Shown: in pieces, positions 590-63,079 of the stretch | Layout of the letters: every line of letters starts with the position of its first letter | Numbering within the stretch: position 1 is the stretch's first letter | Assembly: GCA_964016885.1 (NCBI GenBank) | Contig: OZ024758.1 | Coordinates: 30,814,001 to 30,878,000, forward strand | Reading direction: 5' to 3' | From: Eledone cirrhosa | Lineage: Eukaryota | Length of the DNA: 64,000 bases | Made by a program: the position numbers and the translations under genes | Notes under the pieces: generated by a model | Told to the model about the DNA's origin: nothing | Databases searched by the model: none | Seen by the model: the letters and a program-made list of their open reading frames with translations, nothing else

Positions 590-799
590 ACATAGATATA
601 TACCATAATAAAATACTTGGCACACTTTTCACCATCTTTTGATCTTATATTATATATATATAAGCAAAAGGGATATTTAATTTGTTGGTAAGTCAACAAA
701 TATAAATGTTTATAACAGATTCGAAGCACTCGACGGTTTTCTGGAGTATAATATCAATGATATTAATAAATGGAAGCTATATTTATAAAACCATATTTA

Positions 800-856
800 T
801 TCTATTATATATATTTCAAGGGTACCAAAACTTTGGTACGCTATCATCAGATAAAA
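800..856 (-). ncRNA. Type I hammerhead ribozyme
   Basis: TTTTAT-CTGATGA-stem II GTACCAAA/TTTGGTAC-GAAAT-ATAT-ATA/ATAGAA. Confidence 0.75.
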
Positions 857-889
857 TACAAAGTTTGTTTCATAAATATATATATATAA

Positions 890-969
<80 letters not shown>

Positions 970-1010
970 GATATTAAACAAATGGAAACTATATTTATAA
1001 AACCATATTT

Positions 1011-1074
1011 ATTTCATTATACATATTTCAGGGATACCATATTAAAAATATGGCATGCCTTCTTCAGATAAAAT
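1011..1074 (-). ncRNA. Type I hammerhead ribozyme
   Basis: ATTTTAT-CTGAAGA-AGGCATGCCATATT...AATATGGTATCCCT-GAAAT-ATGT-ATA/ATGAAAT. Confidence 0.75.
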
Positions 1075-1187
1075 ACAATATATAAGCAGTTTTATAAATA
1101 AATTTGACGTACCATAAAATATTGATCAACTTCCATTTAAAAAAAGTTGGTTTGGTAGTATAAAAGTTGGTAGCATAAAAGTACGTT

Positions 1188-1232
<45 letters not shown>

Positions 1233-1326
1233 ATATCCAGGAAGAAGATCTTAACGGTTCATGTTTTTCCTGAACCGTTAAGATCTCCTTCCTGGATATG
1301 TCAATATTCATAAAACAAACTTTGTA

Positions 1327-1383
1327 TTTTATCTGATGAGAGTGTACCAAAGTTTTGGTACCCTTGAAATATATATAATAGAA
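1327..1383 (+). ncRNA. Type I hammerhead ribozyme (inverted copy of 800-856)
   Basis: CTGATGA at 1333-1339, GTACCAAA/TTTGGTAC stem II, GAAA at 1366-1369, ATA triplet, stem I TTTTAT/ATAGAA. Confidence 0.75.
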
Positions 1384-1444
1384 TAAATATGGTTTTATAA
1401 ATATAGTTTCCATTTATTAATATCATTGATATATATATCTATCT

Positions 1445-2363
1445 AGGGCGGGTAAAATTCCCGAGTTCTCTCCAGCGGTCTCTGTCCCTCATTATCGCTG
1501 CCATATCCTGCGTCTCCAACAGACCAGTGTCTGTCCTTAGCGCATCAACTTACGTTAACCTTGGTCTTCCGCTTACAGTGTGTCCATGTAGGGGCTCCCA
1601 CAGTAGCACTGAGTGCAATGTCAACTCTGGATGTCGGTGAGCATGTCCAGCTAACCTCAATCTCCTCTGTGTCACTTTTGAGCTGACTCTTGGGAGGCTC
1701 CGATACAGCTCTGAGTTGTTCATCCTCAGTGTATACTGAGTAATGTTCAGAGCCATCCTCAGCATTCTCGTGTAGCACCCATCCACCATCTGAGTGAGTT
1801 TCTTGGTCAGTGTCCAAGTCTCAGGCCGTACAGTAGCACAGACCCCACTACAGCAATGAAGAGGCGGACCTTCAGGTCTTCCCGAAGGTCCGACTTCCAC
1901 ACCGATCTCAAGCTGTGGCACGCCGCCCAGGCTTTGATCTTCCTCTCAACCAGATCATCTTCCGTATTCCCAATCTTTGCTCCCAAATACAGGAAGTCCT
2001 CAACCAATTCTAGCGGCTTGCCGCCTACATTAGTGATCCCCAATGGCCTCTCAACATTCTCTACCAGATATTTTGTTTACACCTGACGGGATGACAGAGT
2101 TCTTTGAGATACTGGCTGGAGTGCTCCACGGAGATACATTGGCTCCCTACCTTTTTATCATCGTATGGGCCTTGCACTGGAGAAACACCAGGACTCTGGC
2201 TTTACTGTAGCACCGACTGAGAGCAGGAGAGTTAAGGCGAAAAAGATATCAGATGCTGAATTTGCCGACGACATAGTCTTGGTGACAAATACAGTGAAGG
2301 AGGCAGAGGATTTGATGCAGGAGGTTGAGACTGTGTCGATGAGTGTGGGGCTGAGAATGAATG

Positions 2364-2365
<2 letters not shown>
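1445..2365 (-). mobile_element. RTE-clade LINE 3' fragment with inverted 5' segment (2081-2365 on +)
   Basis: Minus ORFs encode VEDFLYLG, VLLYG(S)ETWTLTKK and RRLRLAGH (RTE RT C-terminus). The plus segment encodes RT motifs GDTLAPYLF and EFADDI. Both ends abut (TA)n. Confidence 0.9.
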
Positions 2366-2427
<62 letters not shown>

Positions 2428-2428
<1 letters not shown>

Positions 2429-2772
2429 AGTATGTACACGTACATACATATATGTATACAGTAGTATGTATATATATATACATACATGCACACATATATA
2501 TATGCACGCATGGACTCACCGAACATTTATTATAATGCTCGGTGTGTTTGTAAACAAACATCCCGTATTAAGCCATAGTGTCTAGCAACCATCGTTCAAC
2601 ACTGACAAAGGAACGCTGTACTAGTTTCAAGCTTATTAGTTATCGTCAGCAACGTATACCTTCCTGCCAAATTGTTGAACGTATATACTTACCTTATGCC
2701 TATTAACGGCTGAGTAGCCCCATTTGCATATCGAGTGGGTTAATCGGCCGGGTGCACCGAAAACGATAAACT
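2428..2772 (-). mobile_element. Non-autonomous HHR element (ACTAGT family), partial unit
   Basis: Homologous to 13712-14085 and 34015-34345; carries the HHR at 2613-2655. Confidence 0.75.
2613..2655 (-). ncRNA. Minimal type I hammerhead ribozyme
   Basis: ACGTTG-CTGACGA-TAACTAATAAGCTT-GAAAC-TA-GTA/CAGCGT; stem III is the palindrome ACTAGT. Confidence 0.75.
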
Positions 2773-3208
2773 GTAAAGGGACGTAACTATGCTAGAAAGC
2801 ATGGTGTCTGACGCTCTACCGATTCTGTCAATCTACCACCTTAGACAAATAATGTTAGGCTTCTGGTAAGATGATTGAACAAGGAAGTCACTTTCTCAAC
2901 AGGTTTTAGTTCAAGTGCCAGGCAAGGAATGACCGTTACCGATACCCACGTGGGGCTCTACAAGGGAGGCAACCCTTATTTTTGACGGATGAAATTCAGT
3001 ATGTGTATATTATTGCAAAAATGCAAAATATCACAAAACGAATTAGGCTCTCAACAGAATGGTTATAAGTTAACAAAAGCTATTCATCAGTCAATAGAAT
3101 CAACTAAAAAAATCAAGAAAATTAACTGGTCAATAGCTAGACTCTGGAGATTAATACAAATATAAATTAGCGAGAATCGTATTTCGGCTTTGGAATTAGC
3201 GAAAAACG

Positions 3209-3264
<56 letters not shown>

Positions 3265-3333
3265 TATGAAGAGAGAAGAAACATTTAGATATAATTAGTA
3301 ATAAAATGTATCATACCTAAACTGCTCCTAGAT

Positions 3334-3423
3334 TCCTCGACTACGTAGTTTCGTGGCATAAACAAAAACAATACATCATAAAGATATAGAGTCCTTGCGA
3401 GGTCTGCCGACTTATCAAGAGGA
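3334..3423 (-). ncRNA. Type I hammerhead ribozyme, U3-A8 variant with long stem II
   Basis: TCCTC-TTGATAA-GTCGGCA...TGCCAC-GAAAC-TACGTA-GTC/GAGGA. Confidence 0.8.
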
Positions 3424-3926
3424 TACCTCATTTTACTAGTCTCAAGAACGCGTCTACACGACGTGAGAAAGAATCCCAAAAGGCGGAGGGGGAGATAGTC
3501 ACGCGATATAACGGTCGAGAAACAGAGCTAAGCCTCTTATAACCCCGAAGAAAATACCACGGAGGCGGAGGGGGTATTTATATCGAAGCCGTAGAAGAGG
3601 TGGTGAAGGAGGCGAGAAGTATGAGTAATGGGAGCTTTCCAGCAGTCCCCACACTTCAAAGATTGCTCGACCAGAGGGAGTTATTAACAATATATTTAGA
3701 AACACACAGATACATGCGGACACACACATATACATGAATGCATCCGCACCCAACCGTGAGTTAAGGGTGCCAACTTCACCGATGTTGCTCAATGAATGAC
3801 TGGGACAGACCAATCCGGTTGAACTAGACTGAACCAGTATCAGAGTTAAAAATACATTATGAAGAGAGAAGAAAAATTTAGATATAATTAGTAATAAAAT
3901 GTATCATACCTAAACTGCTCCTAGAT

Positions 3927-4016
3927 TCCTCGACTACGTAGTTTCGTGGCATAAACAAAAACAATACATCATAAAGATATAGAGTCCTTGCGAGGTCTGC
4001 CGACTTATCAAGAGGA
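3927..4016 (-). ncRNA. Type I hammerhead ribozyme, U3-A8 variant (second unit)
   Basis: Same sequence as 3334-3423. Confidence 0.8.
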
Positions 4017-4162
4017 TACCTCATTTTACTAGTCTCAAGAACGCGTCGTGTCATTCATTGAGCAACATCGGTGAAGTTGGCACCCTTAACTCACGGTTGG
4101 GTGCGGATGCATTCATGTATATGTGTGTCCCCGCATGTATCTGTGTGTTTCTAAATATATTG

Positions 4163-4231
<69 letters not shown>

Positions 4232-4234
<3 letters not shown>

Positions 4235-4540
4235 CGAAGGAGGTGTGGTAAGGAATCAGATGGACCATAACGCACCAGAATACTCAATACTTAGGGTAGT
4301 AGAGTGGGAATAGGAAAAAGTATGACCCCGACGGCAGAGCTCAAGCCGTTTCGACAGATATTTCTGGAACTCTTATTTTTTTTTTTTTGCGGAAAGGGAT
4401 TCTGGAGAAAATAGAGGGGGGACGTTATAGAGTAGGTTAATCAATTCAGATTAGAAAATAATAAATAAATTAAAAAAATAGTCCAGAAATAGCCGCCGAA
4501 ACGGCTTGAGCTCGGCCATCGGGGTCAAACATTTTCCTAT
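4232..4540. mobile_element. Fold-back 3'-end element family A (half hammerhead GAAACGGC..GCCGTC/GGGG)
   Basis: Same ~130-bp terminus as 5937-6112, 6947-7095, 12475-12662, 50131-50296 and 53971-54138, followed by an inverted short arm; flanked by (TA)n. Confidence 0.75.
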
Positions 4541-4591: not shown

Positions 4592-4701
4592 TCCGCTGAT
4601 GAAGTCGCATAAGCCGATTGTGCATTGTTGCATAATATATGCAGACGGATGGTGCAGTGCACCTTACTGCGGCATTAGTGTGGCCGAAACTCGAGTCCGG
4701 G
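4592..4701 (+). ncRNA. Type I hammerhead ribozyme with ~83-nt extended stem II
   Basis: TCCG-CTGATGA (4596-4602)-AGTCGCATAAGCCG...CGGCATTAGTGTGGCC-GAAAC-TCGA-GTC/CGGG; inner helices GTGCATTGT/GCAGTGCAC and TGCATA/TATGCA. Confidence 0.7.
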
Positions 4702-4864
4702 AACTATTATAGGCACCCGTTTTACATGTGTTGTATTGAAGCGAATAACTATTTGTATACTCTGGGAATGTATCTTACATTACCTATTGAGTACGCTGAG
4801 ATACAACCGGTCCTGGCATTGATAAATATGCTGGGTCCGTCAACTCCTTATTATATATATATAA

Positions 4865-5105
4865 AATATAAAACGAAAAATCAGTGATGCATCTGAACTC
4901 AATTTATTGTGTGTTACAATTGTTTCGCCGGCAGACAGCTCGAGACACGATCATTGTATGGATCTGTCTGATTCTGGACCAGATTTCTAGGTCCAGAATC
5001 AGACAGATCCATACAATGACCGTGTCTCGAGCTGTCTGCCGGCGAAACAATTGTAACACACAATAAATTGAGTTCAGATGCATCACTGATTTTTCGTTTT
5101 ATATT
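4865..5105. repeat. Near-perfect inverted repeat (116-bp arms, 9-bp spacer) carrying a core-deleted hammerhead in each arm
   Basis: Arms 4865-4980 and 4990-5105. 5022-5059 reads GTGT-CTCGA-GCTG..CGGC-GAAAC-AATT-GTA/ACAC. Confidence 0.9.
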
Positions 5106-5182
5106 ATATCACACTCTGCTCTGTAAGAACACAGAGTGCTCAACCGGCATACCGCCTATAGAAGCATCATAGCTACCATCAG

Positions 5183-5228: not shown

Positions 5229-5601
5229 ATAAATTAATAAAAACAATGGATAAAAACACAGAAACAATTCCTTATATTAAAAAATTCATCATTTTACGAT
5301 CGTTTCTAGGATATATATGTGTGTGTTGGTATGTATATCATATAGATCTATGTAAACATTTTACAAATTATCAGAGGCAATATACATACCTACACATATA
5401 TATGCTGTCTTCAGAAATAATTTATGAAGACAGCATATAGGTATGTATATTCCCTCTGATAGTTTGTAAAATTTTAACATAGATCTATATGATATACATA
5501 CCAACACACACATATATATCCTAGAAACGATCGTAAAATGAAGAATTTTTTAATATAAGGAACTGTTTCTTTGTTTTTATTCATTGTTTTTATTAATTTA
5601 T
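5229..5601. repeat. Fold-back inverted repeat (~180-bp arms)
   Basis: 5229-5412 is complementary to 5425-5601, with a few mismatches and an indel. Confidence 0.85.
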
Positions 5602-5897: not shown

Positions 5898-5936
<39 letters not shown>

Positions 5937-5940
<4 letters not shown>

Positions 5941-6112
5941 AACGAGTAGGACCCCGACGGTTGAGCTCACTGAATCCAGAATTAGCCGTCGAAACGGCTT
6001 GAGCTCAGCCGTCGGGGTCCTACTCGTTCCTATTACTCACTCTACTACCCTAGGTATTGAGTACTTTGGTGCGTTATGGTCCATCTGGTTCCTTACCACA
6101 TTTCCTTCGTTA
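5937..6112 (+). mobile_element. Family A fold-back element
   Basis: The short inverted arm 5937-5969 pairs with 6000-6032; the family A terminus runs to the (TA)n tract. Confidence 0.75.
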
Positions 6113-6132
6113 TATATATATATATATATATA

Positions 6133-6202
<70 letters not shown>

Positions 6203-6757: not shown

Positions 6758-7095
<338 letters not shown>

Positions 7096-9211: not shown

Positions 9212-9625
9212 TTACATTTTATATATATATCTAAAAGTTGAGTTTAACCGATGTTTACAAGAACTAAATAAATTATTCCGCAAATTAACAGAGTTCTTAG
9301 ATTTTAGTATAAAGAATATTTCCTCTACACCAAGACTACAAAAATTGGATAAACCTGTGTAGCATGGTGCTTTGGAGACAATTTTCCAAAATAAAGAGTA
9401 TTTTATATTCTTGGATTTTAAATTCCATAATAAGTTGGATAGAGAAGTTGAAGATTTCTTGTTAATATTCGTAAAGGAACATTTATGGTTATTGAAACGA
9501 GATTTGAAGTCTGTCGAAGTAGAGCCGACATAGTTGAAGGAATTGGTTTTGACATTACAATTGTATATTATATTTTTAACTAAACAGTTATTATTTAGAG
9601 GACAGTTAGATTTATTTCTACAGTT
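9212..9625 (-). pseudogene. PLE GIY-YIG endonuclease domain (fragment)
   Basis: SNCRNKSNCPLNNNCLVKNIIYNCNV...YVGSTSTDFKSRFNNHKCSF...LSNLLWNLK...CSL..EE...CKHR. The first ~80 aa of the track ORF come from an unrelated insertion. Confidence 0.85.
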
Positions 9626-9639
9626 AGATTTATATATAT

Positions 9640-9880
9640 ATAGAAAAAAAGATGAAATCGAAAATGCAACTGGAGTCTTATTTAAAAAAATGTATATATA
9701 TTTATTTGGTTCCTTTACCGGTTTCGCAGTTCTTCTGCTTTTCAAAAGTAGAGTTGAGATGGAGGGTCTGTGGTTTTTCTTACATCTGGTTGGTCTTTGA
9801 ACGTTACTTGTTTTATATGGAAAAAAAGTGGCTCGAAACCCCAGGTTTTTAGAGAAGTAATTTGATTGGTTGGTCAATAA
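9640..9880 (-). mobile_element. Non-autonomous HHR element (ACCGGT family)
   Basis: Reverse complement of 57328-57565; partial copy at 50315-50395. Confidence 0.75.
9713..9748 (-). ncRNA. Minimal type I hammerhead ribozyme, U3-A8 variant
   Basis: CTT-TTGAAAA-GCAG(AAGAA)CTGC-GAAAC-CG-GTA/AAG; stem III is the palindrome ACCGGT. Confidence 0.7.
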
Positions 9881-10259
9881 GTATAATAAATTTCACGCCA
9901 GTTCGCGTTACAAAGTTCTTCAAACAGGGGGGGGGGGGGATCAGGTTGTTTTTTCATATATGAGTGTTTGAATTTCTTTTTACTTAAAAAAGGGGCTAAC
10001 GAAGGCTTTTTAAAAAAAAATGTAATTTGATTGGTTATAAATGAAATTATTGGTGTCACGTGAACATGTTCATTAAATTTCGTGCCCGTATTTGGGAATA
10101 TATTTTGTAGCCTTTTAGAGAATTTTATGACAAGCAAAAGAATGGTCAAGAGAAATGGGATGGGAGAATTGTTCTGGTTCAGTGAGTATGGCTAGTTCGC
10201 TGGGGTGTCAGAGTTCAGATTTTCTATTGAAATAAAGAAAGTAGACATGTATGTTTATT

Positions 10260-11284: not shown

Positions 11285-11330
<46 letters not shown>

Positions 11331-11495
11331 AATTAGTATATCTACCAACATATATATACAGATGCATACCTATGCTAGCAAATATATAGGTTTTGTCTTA
11401 GTAACTTTGTGGTTCAATGCAAGGGGATGCAGAACAATTATATGAAAGATGTAAAATAAGAGAATTATAAAAATTAACTTACTTACTAAAATTTC

Positions 11496-11577
11496 ACTCC
11501 AACTAATTAGTTTCTGAAAGGGAATAAACATGGTTTCTGAATGGAAAGCATGGAGAAACCTTTCGTCATCAGGAAGT
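11496..11577 (-). ncRNA. Type I hammerhead ribozyme with long stem II
   Basis: ACTTC-CTGATGA-CGAAAGG...CCTTTCA-GAAAC-TAATTA-GTT/GGAGT. Confidence 0.7.
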
Positions 11578-12024
11578 CTGTTCTCAGCTAAGTTACCAGG
11601 CGATGCGTGGACACAGGGAACTTATTCAAAAATAATTCAGTGGATGGAAAAAAGCAAGCGTGGACTAAATTCCAAGACATTGAAAAAATCACTGCCTACT
11701 TGGTCGGTCGCAAATTCAAAAGAATCAATCACGTGACATCGAGGTTAATCAGTGAGGAGTGGGGTGTTAAAAAGACAGTGGCCGAGCCATTACTATGAAC
11801 AATAGTAGCAGTTTTTGCAAATTTTTGCTCAACAAAATAATTTGGAGATAATTATAAAGAATTAGTATATCTACCAACATATATATACAGATGCATACCT
11901 ATGCTAGCAAATATATAGGTTTTGTCTTAGTAACTTTGTGGTTCAATGCAAGGGGATTCAGAACAATTATATGAAAGACGTAAAATAAGAGAATTATAAA
12001 AATTAACTTACTTACTAAAATTTC

Positions 12025-12092
12025 ACTCCAACTAATTAGTTTCTGAAACATGGTTTTCTGAAGCATGGAGAAACCTTTCGTCATCAGGAAAT
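12025..12092 (-). ncRNA. Type I hammerhead ribozyme (second unit, deletions in stem II)
   Basis: Core, stem I and stem III as in 11496-11577; stem II shortened. Confidence 0.55.
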
Positions 12093-12388
12093 CTGTTCTC
12101 AGCTAAGTTACCAGGCGATGCGTGGACACAGGGAACTTATACAAAAATAATTTAGTGGATGGAAAAAAGCCAGCGTGGACTAAATTCCAAGACATTGAAA
12201 AAATCACTGCCTACTTGGTCGGTCGCAAATTCAAAAGAATCAATCACGTGACATCGAGGTTAATCAGAGACGAAAGGTTTCTCCATGCTTTCCATTCAGA
12301 AACCATATTTATTCCCTTTCAGAAACTAATTAGTTGGAGTGAAATTTTAGTAAGTAAGTTAATTTTTATAATTCTCTTATTTTACGTC

Positions 12389-12474
<86 letters not shown>

Positions 12475-12476
<2 letters not shown>

Positions 12477-12662
12477 CAAAGGAATTGTGGTCAGGAACCA
12501 GATGGACCATAACGCACCAGAGTACTCAATACTTAGGGTAGTAGAGTAGGAAATAGGAAAAAGTATGACCTCGACGGCAGAGCTCTAGCCGTTTCGGCGG
12601 CTATTTCTGGAATAGCCGTCGAAACGGCTAGAGCTCTGCCGTCAGGGTCATACTTTTTCCTA
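12475..12662. mobile_element. Family A fold-back element
   Basis: Terminus 12475-12610 and inverted arm 12611-12662; flanked by (TA)n. Confidence 0.75.
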
Positions 12663-15281: not shown

Positions 15282-15405
15282 AGTTTTAATATAGATGAGA
15301 TTCTACAGGACTAGAACTGTTTCATTCATTTGAAATCATCAGGAATTCCTGATGATTTCAAATGAATGAAACAGTTCTAGTCCTGTAGAATCTCATCTAT
15401 ATTAA

Positions 15406-15409
<4 letters not shown>
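15282..15409. repeat. Perfect 128-bp palindrome centred beside a hammerhead core
   Basis: Centre GGAATTCC (15342-15349). Each strand reads CTGATGA-TTTCAAATGAAT-GAAAC-AGTTCTA-GTC. Confidence 0.9.
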
Positions 15410-39824: not shown

Positions 39825-39994
39825 TCACTATAGTGGTTCTATACCCCTTGTAACTGTAAACATCCCCCTTTTTGTGTTTTCTTCTCTATATACTGTATTA
39901 TGAAGAGCCCAGAACATTTTCCTTGAACTCATAAAATTACAGGGGATTAACGGGAGTCTTTATCTCTGTTTTTTCATTTGATATTTATCTATCT

Positions 39995-40992
<998 letters not shown>

Positions 40993-43781: not shown

Positions 43782-45665
43782 CGGGTAAAATTCCCGAGAA
43801 CCATGGACGAGTTCTCTTCAGAAGTCTCTGTCCCTCATCATCGTTGCCATACCCTGCGTCTCCAACAGACCAGTGTCTGTCCTTAGGGCATCAACATATG
43901 TCAACCTCGGTCGCTCTCTTCTAGTGTGTCAATGCAGGGGCTACCTCAGGAGCAGTGAGTGCAATGTCAACTCTGGATGTCGGTGAGCATGTCCAGCTAA
44001 CCTCAATCTCTTCTGTGTCACTTTTGAGCTGACTTTTGGGAGGCTCCCGTACAGCTCTGAGTTCTTCATCCTCAGTATATACTGATTAATGTTCAGAGTC
44101 ATCCTCAGCATTCTCGTGTAGCACTCATCCACCATCTGAGTGAGTTTCTTGGTCAGTGACCAAGTCTCAGACCCGTACAGTAGCACAGCCTCTACTACAG
44201 CAGCGAAGAGACGGATCTTCAGGTCTTTACGGATGTCCGACTTCCACACAGAGCCCAAACTGTTGCACGCCGCCCAGGCTTGCTCTTCCTCACAACCACA
44301 TCATCATCTGTGTTTCCAATCTTTGCTCCCACATACAGGAAGTCCTCAACCAAATCTAGTCGCTTTCCGCCTACATTCTTCTCTGGCTTCTTAATATTCT
44401 CTACCGGATACTTCGTCTCATTCATTCTCAGCCCCACACTCATCGACACAGTCTCCACCTCCTGCATCAACTCTGCCTCCTTCACTATGTTTATCACCAT
44501 ACCTGTCTCCCCGCGGGTGTTGAGGGTGACCTTCAATGGAAACCCAAGTCTGGCAGTCATCTCAGCCTATAGTCCAACCGAGGGAGACAGTGATGTGAGT
44601 GCGGAAGAGTTCCATGAGGAGGTGTGTAGAGCTGTCAACACCACACCAGCTCATAACATCCTGCTTGTTCTGGGGGACTTCAATGCACATCTGAGTAAGG
44701 AGGGCAGTGAAGATCCTTGCTGGTACTTCCATAACAACACAAACCGGAATGGAAGATTACTGAGAGACACCCTGCTGGAGGCGAACTTGATTGTAACCAA
44801 CCTAAGGTTTAGGAAGAATTCGGGGAAGATGTGGACCTACATCTCAGATATGCACTTGTCCAAGTACCAGATTGATTTCATTCTGCTGAGGATAAAGTGG
44901 CGGAATAGTGTTCTGAACACTGAACCATACAACTATTTCGGTACACTGGGTCGTGACCACCGGCTTGTTATGAATGAGGCCAGTGTGAGCTTAAGAAAGA
45001 GTAAGGCTCAGCCCCGGAGAGCAATCTAGGACTGGGGAAATTTCAAGGGAGATGATAAGCTACAGGAGAGGTTCCCAGTAGAATTGAGGAACAGGTTCAG
45101 TGCTATGTGTGGAGAGGAAGAGGAGAGAGAGATTGGAGGGACTGAGGAGAGTGTGACGAGGATGATTCTTAGCAGGATCCTGTCCGAGATGGAGAAGAAG
45201 CTCAGGGACAACCAGAACGGCTTCAGAGAGGGAAGATCAACCACCAGTCACATCCTGATGCTGAGGAGGATATTAGAGGGAGCTAGAGCAAAGAGCCTTC
45301 CTGCTGTCATGGTTTTAATTGACTTTAAGAAGGCCTTTGTGGACCGTCACTGCCTGGTGAACATCTTACCGGGTTATGGAATCCCCAAGAAGATAGTGGA
45401 TCTGATATCACTGCTCTCCACCAACACCAAAGCCCAAGTCATTAGACCTGATGGGATGACGGAGTTCTTTGAGATACTGGCTGGAGTGCTCCAGGGAGAT
45501 ACATTGGCTCCCTACCTTTTTATCATCGCAGTGGACTATTGTATACGCCTTGCACTGGAGAAACACCAGGACTCTGGCTTTATTGTAACACCGGCTCAGA
45601 GCAGGAGAGTTAAGGCGAAAAAGGTATCGGATGCTGAATTTGCCGACGACATAATTATGGTGACA
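43778..45665 (-). mobile_element. RTE LINE: 3' part on minus (43778-44495) with inverted 5' part (APE endonuclease and RT, 44496-45665 on +)
   Basis: APE motifs ISAYSPT, LGDFNAH, QIDFIL and DHRLV. RT motifs QNGFREGRST, LIDFKKAF, GVLQGDTLAPYLF and FADDI. Internal deletion between APE and RT. Confidence 0.95.
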
Positions 45666-45699
45666 CACACATATATATATAATATAATATAATATAATA

Positions 45700-50130: not shown

Positions 50131-50133
<3 letters not shown>

Positions 50134-50296
50134 CAAAGGAGGTGTGGTAAGGAACCAGATGGACCATAACGCACCAGAGTACTCAGTACTTAGGGTAGTA
50201 GAGTGGGTAATAGTAAAATGTTTGACCCCGACGGCAGAGCTCAAGCCGTTTCGTAGAAACGGGCTGAGCTCTGCCGTCGGGGTCAAACATTTTCCT
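50131..50296. mobile_element. Family A fold-back element
   Basis: The hairpin turns at TTTCGTAGAAA (50249-50259), directly at the hammerhead GAAA. Confidence 0.8.
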
Positions 50297-53970: not shown

Positions 53971-54138
53971 TAACAAAGGAATTGTGGTAAGGAACCAGAT
54001 GGACCATAACGCACCAGAGTACTCAATACTTAGGGTAGTAGAGTGGGAAATAGGAAAAGGGTATGACCTCGACGGCAGAGCTCAGAAATAGCCGTCGAAA
54101 TGACTTGAGCTCTGCCGTCGAGGGTCATACTTTTTCCT
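53971..54138. mobile_element. Family A fold-back element
   Basis: Terminus 53971-54083 and inverted arm 54084-54138, within TA tracts. Confidence 0.8.
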
Positions 54139-57012: not shown

Positions 57013-57456
57013 TAACATTAGCTACCTAAGCCAATGATCTTCCCCATGAAATTGTTCGGAAGATTGTACCTCTTCACATGTTGATGTTATACTTATCTAG
57101 TTTTATGAGATATCAGTGAAGTAAGGATGTAGCTAAAATTAACATGAGGAAATTGGACAGCTCGTCCTGAGGAGCTGGGGAGAGGAACTAGTGGATTTGG
57201 TCAATTTACTTTTAATACTATAATACATATTTCCTATAGGCAGTCATCGCCGACTGCGAACGGACTGTCTATGAGGATAATGACAATGATGATCACATAT
57301 ATATATATGCGCGAAATTTATTATAATTATTGACCAACCAATCAAATTACTTCTCGAAAAACCTGGCATTTCGAGCCACTTTTTCCATATAAAACAAGTA
57401 ACTTTCAGAGACCAACCAGATGTGAGAAAAACCACAGACCCTCCATCTCAACTCTA

Positions 57457-57492
57457 CTTTTGAAAAGCAGAAGAATTGCGAAACCGATAAAG
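57457..57492 (+). ncRNA. Minimal type I hammerhead, U3-A8 variant (ACCGGT family)
   Basis: CTT-TTGAAAA-GCAG(AAGAA)TTGC-GAAAC-CG-ATA/AAG; one substitution in stem III. Confidence 0.6.
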
Positions 57493-57810
57493 GAACCAAA
57501 TAAATATATATATTTTTTTAAAATAAGACTGCAGTTGCATTTTCGATTTCATCTTTTTTTCTCTATACTTTCACTCGTGTAGGTTATTTTTCATTTTGTA
57601 AAAAAAACTCACTTTCTAATATATCTATATATATATATATATATATATAAATTTTAGTACAGCATAGACGAAGCTCTAGTATACGGCCAAGCTAGCGTGT
57701 ATGCTTATTCGGTTTGTAGCTTTAGCACTCAGATGAGGTAAGACCCCAGAGTATAACATTATGTTCAGACAGCTTAGCAAATTAGATATAACAGTCGGCA
57801 GTTCAACCGC

Positions 57811-59493: not shown

Positions 59494-59531
<38 letters not shown>

Positions 59532-59571
59532 ATGAAATATAAGAATCAAAGAACTGTTCAAAACATTATTG

Positions 59572-59618
59572 TGCTTACAGCTGTTTCCTCCAAACCGAGG
59601 TTTGGATTCTTCGGAACA
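59572..59618 (-). ncRNA. Type I hammerhead ribozyme, U4C variant (inverted pLTR)
   Basis: TGTT-CCGAAGA-ATCCAAAC(CTCG)GTTTGGAG-GAAAC-AGCT-GTA/AGCA. Confidence 0.75.
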
Positions 59619-60547
59619 ATTTATTAATGCATGGACAGTTATATGACCTCCTTTTCAGCCGAGAGACATACCAATACATATTCAAACATTGATACATATT
59701 CAAACATTGTGGGTCAACATTCATTACAGAATTTAGAGTGGCAGTACACACTTCGAGATTACATTTATATTAATAGGTACAATCAAAAATCAAAGATATA
59801 GGTTAAAGTACAACATGAAGATAAGTGGTTATATAGTGCAAATGTTATATGTGTGGCACGCATGTGCGTCTTGTTTATATAGTGTGGCAGAGAGATATGT
59901 GTGGTAGAGGCACTTAGGTAGGTAAATAAGAGTGTTAGGTTGGTAGATCTGGTGGCAAAGTCTTTATATGATTGATATAGTCTGTGTGTGGAGAAATATT
60001 ATAAGCATTAAAGATAGTGCAAGCATTAAAAGTGTTATAATTATTGGAGATGCACAGCGCAGGGATGTCAAGTAATTCATGTACTTCGGCATTTTCATGG
60101 TCAAGGGAGTGTATATTTCGATTATATGCCTTTCACACAATCCACGACAATCCAGTTAGAGATCGTAGTCTGGTGTTCTTTAGTTCGATACAGGAGGTTG
60201 TTACGTTTCGAGAAACGCCATTGAATACCGGAAGTGTGTGTGTGGCTAAGGGGAGTTAATGCATGCGGGGAGGTAACTCTGGGGTTTCTATATCTAGCCA
60301 TTAAAATGTGTCCCAATATAGACCCTAAATTCTATGGTGAGGTGCACCTTCCAAGAGAGACTTTTAAAGCATAAAGTGTACTAACTATAGAGTAGTTTAA
60401 CTAAATTATGCTGAAGGTGATCATATTATTATTAAGGTGGATTAACCCATCTTAAGGTGCTACAAATGGAAATTATAGATGATGAGCGAGGATTCTAAAT
60501 TAATGATCTCTGTGGTTGTAGTCTGCTCATATGACCAGGCGCGGTGA

Positions 60548-61372
60548 TTGCAGGATTGCTTCAGCCTAAATGTCTCCACCAACATACCTAGGGCTTTCTT
60601 CTCACTACTAGATAAAAACTTCCCTCTAGGACACAAGTACCACAACCTCTTAAACAAAAACACCATTAAAATCTCATACTCTACGACGCCTAACTTAGCA
60701 TACCACATAGCTAGCAGCAATAATAGTAAAATTAGTTCTTACTTCCAACAAACAAAATCACAACGGGATGCAAACCCTCTAAATACCACTGTAGCAAGCA
60801 ACAATAGCAACGGCAGTAACAATAGAAATAACACTAGTATAAGTAATAACACCAGGGTTGCCAACCCGAACACCCAAAATCCTATATCCACCACACAGAC
60901 TTCCGCATTGCATTATAACCAGCGGACTAACGCACAGAATAATTGTAACTGTAGAGCTAATAGAACCTGCCCTTTAGATAAAAAATGCCTAACCAAGGAT
61001 GTCATATACTCATGCACAGTCACGACTAATAACTCTTCAGAAACCTATGTAGGCTCCACTTCTAACTGCTTCAAAATCAGATATAACTCGCACATCCACT
61101 CGTTCAAAAAGCACAGCCTAGCCAACTCCACCTCACTTTCTAGCTACATACACTATCTAAAATCTAAAAATAAACCATACACACTCAAATGGGAAGTGAT
61201 AGGCAGCGCGACCTCGTACAAACCACCTAATAAATTCTGTAACCTCTGTATACTAGAGACACACAATATTATCTTCTCCAACCGTAACCTACTTAACAAA
61301 AAATCTGAGGTGTTTGCAACTTGCCAGCACCGCCTCAGACATTCCTTCCAAAACTTTAAGCCCTATATATAG
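60548..61372 (+). pseudogene. PLE ORF C-terminus: linker plus intact GIY-YIG endonuclease (RT lost by 5' truncation)
   Basis: FSLNVSTNI...LLDKNFP..HKYH.LLNKNTIKISYS, an Asn-rich linker, then CNCRANRTCPLDKKCL..VIYSC.V...YVGSTS..FKIRYNSH...CNLCILE...CQHR. The ORF start is created by the inversion junction. Confidence 0.9.
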
Positions 61373-62815
61373 CAATGTCGGACTGGAACCTAACACCACA
61401 TCTAGCATCAAACACCAGAGACACACCCTATACTACATACCCAACACTAGCTGATCCATTATAACACAAACAACGACATCCCTCTGGAACCCTTCGCAGG
61501 GAAAATACCCATTTATACCTCTACGGCAGGTGTGACAACATCCACCCACTTGGACGGCACTACACCGCTCTAAGGGTAATTTGAGCATGAATTGATCGGT
61601 TGGATGGTGTTGGGCAGAGGAAACACCTTCCTTAGACAGATGTAAAATGATTTAATCGAGTAGCGCTGTTGACCAGTAGGACCGGGCTGCTGAGCGCAGT
61701 GAGTGAATGCAATGCAACTGCCGTGCGGGTTGTACGTATATGGATGATCTGACGGTCAGAGACGGGTCGCGAGGACTGCGGATTGACCTTTGGCCTGCCT
61801 GGGGACGATTATCTTTCGACATCCAATGTAGCAAGCGATGACCCAGATCTTACCAGAGATCATTGGGTCCTGAAGCAATCCTGCAATCACCGCGCCTGGT
61901 CATATGAGCAGACTACAACCACAGAGATCATTAATTTAGAATCCTCGCTCATCATCTATAATTTCCATTTGTAGCACCTTAAGATGGGTTAATCCACCTT
62001 AATAATAATATGATCACCTTCAGCATAATTTAGTTAAACTACTCTATAGTTAGTACACTTTATGCTTTAAAAGTCTCTCTTGGAAGGTGCACCTCACCAT
62101 AGAATTTAGGGTCTATATTGGGACACATTTTAATGGCTAGATATAGAAACCCCAGAGTTACCTCCCCGCATGCATTAACTCCCCTTAGCCACACACACAC
62201 TTCCGGTATTCAATGGCGTTTCTCGAAACGTAACAACCTCCTGTATCGAACTAAAGAACACCAGACTACGATCTCTAACTGGATTGTCGTGGATTATGTG
62301 AAAGGCATATAATCGAAATATACACTCCCTTGACCATGAAAATGCCGAAGTACATGAATTACTTGACATCCCTGCGCTGTGCATCTCCAATACTTATAAC
62401 ACTTTTAATGCTTGCACTATCTTTAATGCTTATAATATTTCTCCACACACAGACTATATCAATCATATAAAGACTTTGCCACCAGATCTACCAACCTAAC
62501 ACTCTTATTTACCTACCTAAGTGCCTCTACCACACATATCTCTCTGCCATACTATATAAACAAGACGCACATGCGTGCCACACATATAACATTTGCACTA
62601 TATAACCACTTATCTTCATGTTGTACTTTAACCTATATCTTTGATTTTTGATTGTACCTATTAATATAAATGTAATCTCGAAGTGTGTACTGCCACTCTA
62701 AATTCTGTAATGAATGTTGACCCACAATGTTTGAATATGTATCAATGTTTGAATATGTATTGGTATGTCTCTCGGCTGAAAAGGAGGTCATATAACTGTC
62801 CATGCATTAATAAAT

Positions 62816-62862
62816 TGCTCCGAAGAATCCAAACCTCGGTTTGGAGGAAACAGCTGTAAGCA
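62816..62862 (+). ncRNA. Type I hammerhead ribozyme, U4C variant (3' pLTR)
   Basis: TGCT-CCGAAGA-ATCCAAAC(CTCG)GTTTGGAG-GAAAC-AGCT-GTA/AGCA. Confidence 0.8.
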
Positions 62863-63079
62863 CAATAATGTTTTGAACAGTTCTTTGATTCTTATATTTC
62901 ATATAACTGCTCTGTAAATCATCTGATGTTTTTACATTGAGCTACTTAACTTACTGGTAATAAGGTAGTAATACATTATTGCCTACCACTATTTAGGGTG
63001 TGTGTAAAATACTTACAACTGCTTAAGGTTTTGTGTTTACATAACCATAAATAGTATAACTAATACTATATATATATAT

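Follow-up and report, generated by a model that had tools for sequence, protein, structure and literature searches.

The stretch of DNA analysed here, hereafter called the window, comprises 64,000 nucleotides of the Eledone cirrhosa genome (assembly GCA_964016885.1, contig OZ024758.1, positions 30,814,001 to 30,878,000 of the forward strand) and consists of microsatellite-rich DNA with PLE and RTE-like relics. It contains an insertion that is bordered on both sides by (TA)n (left tract 3209-3261, right tract 4166-4233), the setting in which any target-site duplication would be read. The insertion corresponds to 1.33 units of a 593-nt repeat, with a main run of 789 nt. A 196-nt direct repeat, the two copies of which (3259-3454 and 3852-4047, both on the minus strand) have a period of exactly 593 and differ by a single mismatch (3282/3875), encloses a single-copy, non-coding unit middle (3455-3851, minus). 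The copy at 3259-3454 is the pLTR-like 3' end of the insertion, and ATA is common to this element end and the left (TA)n tract. The upstream copy at 3852-4047 is partial, being a 5'-truncated second round, and beyond it lies a 116-nt inverted arm (4050-4165, plus strand), which is the reverse complement of 3685-3800 with 98 % identity. At the inversion joint (4045-4052), GTC is found on both arms with two letters between them, as in a microhomology joint.

Each repeat copy contains a type I hammerhead motif on the minus strand, and the two motifs (hammerhead 1, 3334-3423; hammerhead 2, 3927-4016) are identical. In hammerhead 1, a 5-bp helix I (UCCUC/GAGGA, 3423-3419 with 3338-3334) is followed by the core UUGAUAA (3418-3412), a 59-nt helix II (3411-3353), GAAA (3352-3349) and a palindromic helix III. 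Cleavage is predicted after the C of GUC at 3339 (3339|3338) and, in hammerhead 2, at 3932 (3932|3931), and would release a monomer of 593 nt from cut to cut (3339-3931, minus), or a circle if the monomer were ligated. The core is designated U3-A8 according to the usual hammerhead numbering. The initial annotation had described two identical U3-A8 hammerheads at 593-nt spacing, a direct repeat exceeding the unit length and an inverted internal piece, all of which are present as given above.

The active fold of the hammerhead is predicted to be 1.1 kcal/mol less stable than the local minimum. For helix III two forms are possible, either within one motif, with 3 bp and a 4-nt loop, or as a 10-bp duplex between the two motifs (predicted -12.9 kcal/mol). 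The motif was not detected by Rfam at the gathering score (0 matches in the window) or at E values up to 10, and four weak Rfam matches to miRNA/sRNA models over a hairpin were treated as chance. No hammerhead core was found on the plus strand of the unit, and no other ribozyme class was identified in either polarity by Rfam, which also missed the real hammerhead. A tertiary contact between loops 1 and 2 is typical of the canonical hammerhead, though not universal; the motif has a helix II of 59 nt and a U3-A8 core, and Rfam models miss it. The available text of PMC4209133 presents U3-A8 as a covariant of PLE hammerheads, known from the Cercyon elements of Schistosoma, where a palindromic helix III is typical, and mussel retrozymes are likewise described, in the part of PMC7229834 that deals with them, as being without the usual tertiary contact residues.

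The unit does not appear to code for a protein. When the unit is read as a circle, its longest ATG frame has 78 codons (3735-3499, minus) and no Pfam match, and frames of this length arose in 114 of 500 shuffles. Its 11 natural substitutions consist of 9 missense changes, 1 stop and 1 silent change, and the frame was rejected as a gene since its length is that expected by chance and a natural variant stop breaks it. No protein similarity was found in the 593-nt unit. The statement in the initial annotation that there is no ORF thus holds in practice. An RT or GIY-YIG endonuclease ORF, as carried by autonomous EN+ PLEs, is not present in the unit, and the share of contigs extending from it into unlike sequence was 0 in sequencing run X1 (see below). 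On the minus strand, an 81-nt intron-like stretch with GT..AG ends (3909-3829) lies across the main 3' end, with its donor inside a 14-bp hairpin and a badly placed branch motif; its position resembles that of the intron in the Penelope 5' UTR, which spans the pLTR boundary. No splice joint for this candidate was seen in the four runs examined, which are contigs of unrecorded library type. A TATA-like motif at 3582-3575 was considered as a conserved promoter and rejected, since position 3579 differs in approximately 59 % of the depth of run X1 and also in runs X6 and X11.

Matches to part of the stretch were found in 20 rows of a search of public sequencing runs, from 16 studies, and statements about the family rest on four runs from four studies (X1, X5, X6 and X11), which are assembled contigs of unrecorded library type, so that contig depth is not a copy number. 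Steps in summed depth close to 3690 and 3855 were set aside, as contig depth gives no ranking of the unit's parts. Run X1, which has short contigs and is possibly from the source sample, contained 1,681 contigs that were 80 to 100 % alike (654 at 99 % or more, 524 at 95-99 %, 318 at 90-95 % and 185 below 90 %) and covered all 30 bins of the unit. None of the X1 contigs, which are short, extended into 20 or more unlike letters. The unit middle was covered in all four runs, and the unit-internal junction 3854/3855 was found within single contigs in X5, X6 and X11, while in X1 the depth was continuous across it. As the junction was crossed in all four runs, 593 nt is the fixed unit length of the family and not the result of a local truncation, and the family is multi-copy and non-coding. 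The initial annotation had named, as the case against its own reading, that all longer copies would be ordinary pLTRs of a coding PLE; the four runs argue against this, both in the crossing of the junction and in the absence of unlike extensions in X1. No loose end resembling a coding body was present among the six listed for X1 (84 others were outside the listing), although the unit may have a rare coding parent.

Among the X1 loose ends listed, (TA)n recurred at 3852 (6 contigs) and at 3690 (7 contigs), which are the two ends used at the locus: the join of the left tract to the element recurs at 3852, and the inverted arm ends at the second joining site (3685-3690, minus). Measured from the predicted cut, the joining sites are 80 and 242-247 nt downstream, and they are 162-167 nt apart. 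The (TA)n target and the two recurrent joining sites, which are marks of Penelope-type insertion, were absent from the initial annotation.

Folded as a circle, the cut-to-cut monomer (42.8 % GC) is predicted to form a branched structure with 60 % of its nucleotides paired, at -175 kcal/mol. The circular fold had a z score of -7.2 on the ribozyme strand vs -0.2 on the opposite strand (30 shuffles each), and the linear fold had a z score of -5.3. None of 66 control windows of 593 nt (5-6 shuffles each) had one strand at least 35 kcal/mol below its shuffles and the other near neutral. Five of the 66 reached 35 kcal/mol below shuffles on some strand, and all five were at least 28 below on both; the control nearest to the one-strand pattern was a simple-repeat window (-30.8/-0.6), and two simple-repeat or satellite windows showed a similar strand asymmetry (35.5 and 30.2 kcal/mol). 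The natural variants (n=25) did not spare predicted pairs significantly (8.8 expected broken vs 10.5 ± 1.6, P=0.13), and no compensatory changes were found among them. None of the 19 variant places in run X1 fell inside the 90-nt hammerhead (P=0.04). The strand-specific fold, the intact motif near its local minimum and the variant-free hammerhead together suggest that the ribozyme is under selection. A block of approximately 210 nt that contains the hammerhead and is continuous on the circle (3925-4047 plus 3455-3544) is likewise free of the 19 places that commonly vary in X1 and is a candidate cis element, with boundaries chosen post hoc.

Hammerhead-like motifs are common in the surrounding DNA. 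A relaxed descriptor found 18 in the window vs 0-2 in each of five shuffled windows, and none of the matches in shuffled windows had a perfectly palindromic helix III of 6 nt or more. Rfam detected 0 of the 18, and 15 of them have (TA)n 49-173 nt downstream. The motifs belong to several families (e.g. at 850, 1067, 1333, 2649, 4596, 7668, 13965, 14697, 33500, 34270, 34619, 41176 and 43606), in many of them helix II is long (83 nt at the most, at 4596) and helix III palindromic, and those at 850/1333 and 34270/34619 form inverted pairs. At a distance of 8 kb there is a second, unrelated element that is built in the same way (11327-12392, minus), with a unit of 515-529 nt in approximately 1.8 copies, two C3-G8 hammerheads (cores at 12087 and 11572) with palindromic helix III, an inverted arm (12269-12392) and (TA)n on both sides; its longest ATG frame has 68 codons and its fold is weak (z approximately -2 on both strands). 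Given the excess of hammerhead-like motifs over shuffled DNA and this second, unrelated element, the build of the insertion is ordinary for this genome.

Several other repeats are found in the window. The PLE relic at 59529-62905 has at its C-terminal end a GIY-YIG-like frame (60548-61369) inside a 1,036-nt inverted repeat with 99.4 % identity; the descriptor scan found no hammerhead in it. Further PLE relics are located at 9215-9892, 39935-40561 and 57315-57572. The GIY-YIG PLE relics point to potential helpers, and no helper sharing sequence with the unit was found in the 64-kb window. A dispersed repeat family adjoining (TA)n (4231-4540, 5936-6133, 6860-7094, 12473-12660, 50131-50294 and 53972-54136) carries GAAA, then a long palindrome and GUC, an arrangement similar to a hammerhead's 3' half; the 5' core required by the scan is lacking. 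Long, near-perfect palindromes at 4861-5109, 5229-5601 and 15283-15408 are probably the inverted ends of other PLE-type insertions. The broken endonuclease/RT relic of a non-LTR retrotransposon at 44184-45689 (Pfam Exo_endo_phos_2 and RVT_1) is presumably RTE-like.

Non-LTR retrozymes of metazoans are defined by two consecutive hammerhead units, have consensus units of 51-972 bp and derive from pLTRs (Li, Clavereau and Pollet 2026, bioRxiv 10.64898/2026.07.22.740005). The element shares with them a non-coding unit with a type I hammerhead in each of two consecutive units (the second partial in the 1.33-unit insertion), a GC content under 50 %, a highly self-paired and branched predicted RNA, the presence of the whole unit in many copies, co-occurrence with PLEs and a unit size within their range. 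The initial annotation had considered 593 nt to be larger than known for such units. This does not hold against the range of 51-972 bp, although the unit is above the 150-450 bp given for retrozyme units and exceeds the circles of approximately 170-400 nt seen by northern blot in invertebrates, according to the portion of Cervera and de la Pena (2020, PMC7229834) that reports them. It differs from the known metazoan non-LTR retrozymes also in its hammerhead, which is of the PLE variant (U3-A8, palindromic helix III and 59-nt helix II) vs the canonical short-helix form, and in its arrangement, known here from DNA, as 1.33 units at a dispersed site plus an inverted arm rather than a long array.

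With EN+ PLEs and the hammerheads of their pLTRs, as described in the accessible parts of PMC4209133, PMC8557442 and PMC3846280, the element shares the partial tandem with an inverted arm on the 5' side, the bias of insertion to microsatellites, a hammerhead near the 3' end and the U3-A8 core. Unlike them, the unit is without an RT or GIY-YIG frame, and its arm is an internal piece that ends approximately 165 nt past the main 3' end, the joining sites being 162-167 nt apart, whereas the inverted pLTR of PLEs carries a tail of 30-40 nt at one end in the same sources. Chlamys PLEs such as MRC1 include ORF-less derivatives with pLTRs and head-to-tail insertions, but are green algal and mostly without canonical hammerheads, as far as the available text of PMC8557442 states. 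The LTR retrozymes of plants resemble the element in the size of their circles (600-1000 nt) and in two hammerheads that bound a non-coding monomer, but have type III hammerheads in true LTRs, a PBS, a PPT and a 4-bp TSD in the portion of PMC5680766 describing them, in place of the type I hammerhead and (TA)n target found here. By the DNA and sequence features compared, the best reading of the unit is as a metazoan non-LTR retrozyme and not an autonomous PLE, the behaviour of its RNA being proposed by analogy with published retrozymes. The retrozyme-like reading of the initial annotation is retained as the best one for an ORF-less, two-hammerhead, multi-copy unit, its claim of an unusual size is not, and its circular RNA stays a prediction.

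The element is probably a non-autonomous PLE-type element, i.e. a non-LTR retrozyme, which would be cut by its own ribozymes, likely circularised and copied into TA microsatellites by the enzymes of coding PLEs. The minus-strand RNA would fold into the branched structure, leaving the hammerhead free to form, and would be cleaved either as a monomer, helix III then having 3 bp, or in the form of a dimer in which the tandem motifs pair through the 10-nt palindrome. The resulting monomer, bearing a 5'-OH and a 2',3'-cyclic phosphate at its termini, could be closed by a host ligase, by analogy with published retrozymes; animal retrozymes accumulate as circles, and an RtcB-type ligase closes them in vitro, according to the available text of PMC7229834. 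The GIY-YIG nuclease of a PLE would then nick both (TA)n strands. One DNA end may prime approximately 80 nt downstream of the cut, and reverse transcription would run for 1.33 rounds (789 nt), passing twice through the cut site with no scar, while the other DNA end may prime approximately 245 nt downstream of the cut, giving the 116-nt inverted arm. The two cDNAs would be joined via the 3-nt microhomology, and the joining sites may be AU-rich spots able to pair with the nicked (TA)n end. The inverted arm fits twin priming as known from L1, in which the second target strand primes at a second site and a microhomology joint is formed.

The helper is likely a PLE, in view of the partial tandem, the inverted 5' copy and the (TA)n bias, which are recognised PLE marks in the accessible text of PMC8557442, and of the GIY-YIG relics in the window. 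PLEs have been called "a strong candidate" for the mobilisation of animal retrozymes, which is still a hypothesis in the relevant part of PMC7229834, and a PLE origin of retrozymes has phylogenetic support (bioRxiv 10.64898/2026.07.22.740005).

Neither end of the insertion is at the ribozyme cut, so without a jump of the RT the cDNA made from a cut linear monomer would be short: with priming 80 nt from the 5' end of the monomer, it would measure 80 nt. The insert of 789 nt requires that the template was a circle or an uncut multimer, or that template jumps were exact. The most serious alternative, possible but clearly less probable, is that the template of the same non-autonomous PLE derivative was a linear transcript of more than unit length that had not been cut, or that the RT jumped between monomers, with a hammerhead that is slow or dormant and no circle accumulating. 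An uncut tandem transcript accounts equally well for the scarless passage of the cut site, animal PLE hammerheads have low cleavage activity in vitro (as stated in the available part of PMC4209133) and eight of nine Xenopus retrozyme dimers tested did not cut (bioRxiv 10.64898/2026.07.22.740005). In addition, how PLE RTs produce tandem and inverted structures is still debated, with self-priming models among those put forward, in the portion of PMC3846280 that discusses these. A circle is nevertheless favoured over an uncut linear template, since the whole cut-to-cut unit folds in a strand-specific manner, the hammerhead is intact with an active fold near its local minimum and no common variant inside, and circles are published for animal retrozymes. 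A closed, self-overlapping contig of 621 letters in X6 and a joint from 4047 back by 593 to 3455 in all four runs were considered as proof of a circle and rejected, because any 1.33-unit DNA copy gives such a closed contig or joint in an assembly graph, so that they are no evidence of an RNA circle. Similarly, reads spanning a join at the cleavage site would not single out a circle, because the same letters are continuous in genomic DNA and in any uncut transcript. No RNA run containing the unit was present among the run-search matches listed.

It is improbable that the insertion is an ordinary partial tandem of 5'-truncated pLTRs from a coding PLE, its 593-nt period being accidental to the locus or the product of a rare deletion. 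The insertion is built like those of PLEs, and truncated PLE ends with hammerheads are abundant in the window, but the crossing of the unit-to-unit junction in four runs from four studies, the lack of unlike extensions in X1 and of a coding body among the six loose ends listed, and the absence of protein similarity from the unit all speak against it.

The whole unit also occurs at low depth (approximately 2-13) in runs from three further studies that bear the labels of three other organisms; the alleles vary from run to run, some being minor in X1 and most being present in X1 as well. Trace DNA or a related species is the plain reading of this, and transfer is the bold one. In its boldest form, to which we give little credence, a circular RNA parasite would cross animal species, leaving a near-identical whole unit under four organism labels, and the genomic copies would be snapshots of the circle made by Penelope enzymes, primed at two fixed sites other than the cut. 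If true, this would be an animal retrozyme crossing hosts, and its structure would be direct evidence for priming on circles by PLE enzymes. Least probable of all is that a viroid-like RNA, infectious or transmitted horizontally, is now and then reverse-transcribed into the genome. The occurrence under other labels with differing alleles could speak for this, but the opposite strand is without a hammerhead core, a ribozyme in both polarities being expected of a symmetric viroid-like replicon, the alleles of the other runs are mostly in X1 too and come from libraries of unrecorded type, and trace DNA of a very abundant repeat (from a co-sampled animal, library carry-over or a related species) would look identical. 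Viral contigs gave 0 matches to the stretch, and metagenome contigs gave 0 matches in one search and seven loci in another, all of 18-28 nt without a hammerhead and attributable to chance.

With the element read as a non-LTR retrozyme mobilised by PLE enzymes, neither its unit size nor its link to PLEs is new, as both are reported in bioRxiv 10.64898/2026.07.22.740005, and the kind of element is known. Less usual are the U3-A8 hammerhead with a long helix II in an ORF-less unit and the recurrence of two priming sites that lie apart from the cut. The literature yielded no account of the family and none of a (TA)n-inserted retrozyme that carries an inverted arm, which is weak evidence of novelty, as the coverage stopped short of most subscription papers, repeat databases and the supplements of papers. 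The hammerhead is missed by Rfam and, with its 59-nt helix II, exceeds the descriptor spacing quoted in the accessible text of PMC8557442, so such families may be undercounted. In this family an ORF-less unit with two hammerheads bears the marks of PLE insertion and has two recurrent priming sites distinct from the cut site; being young and abundant, the family makes both the use of a circular template by a PLE RT and the origin of the inverted arm testable.
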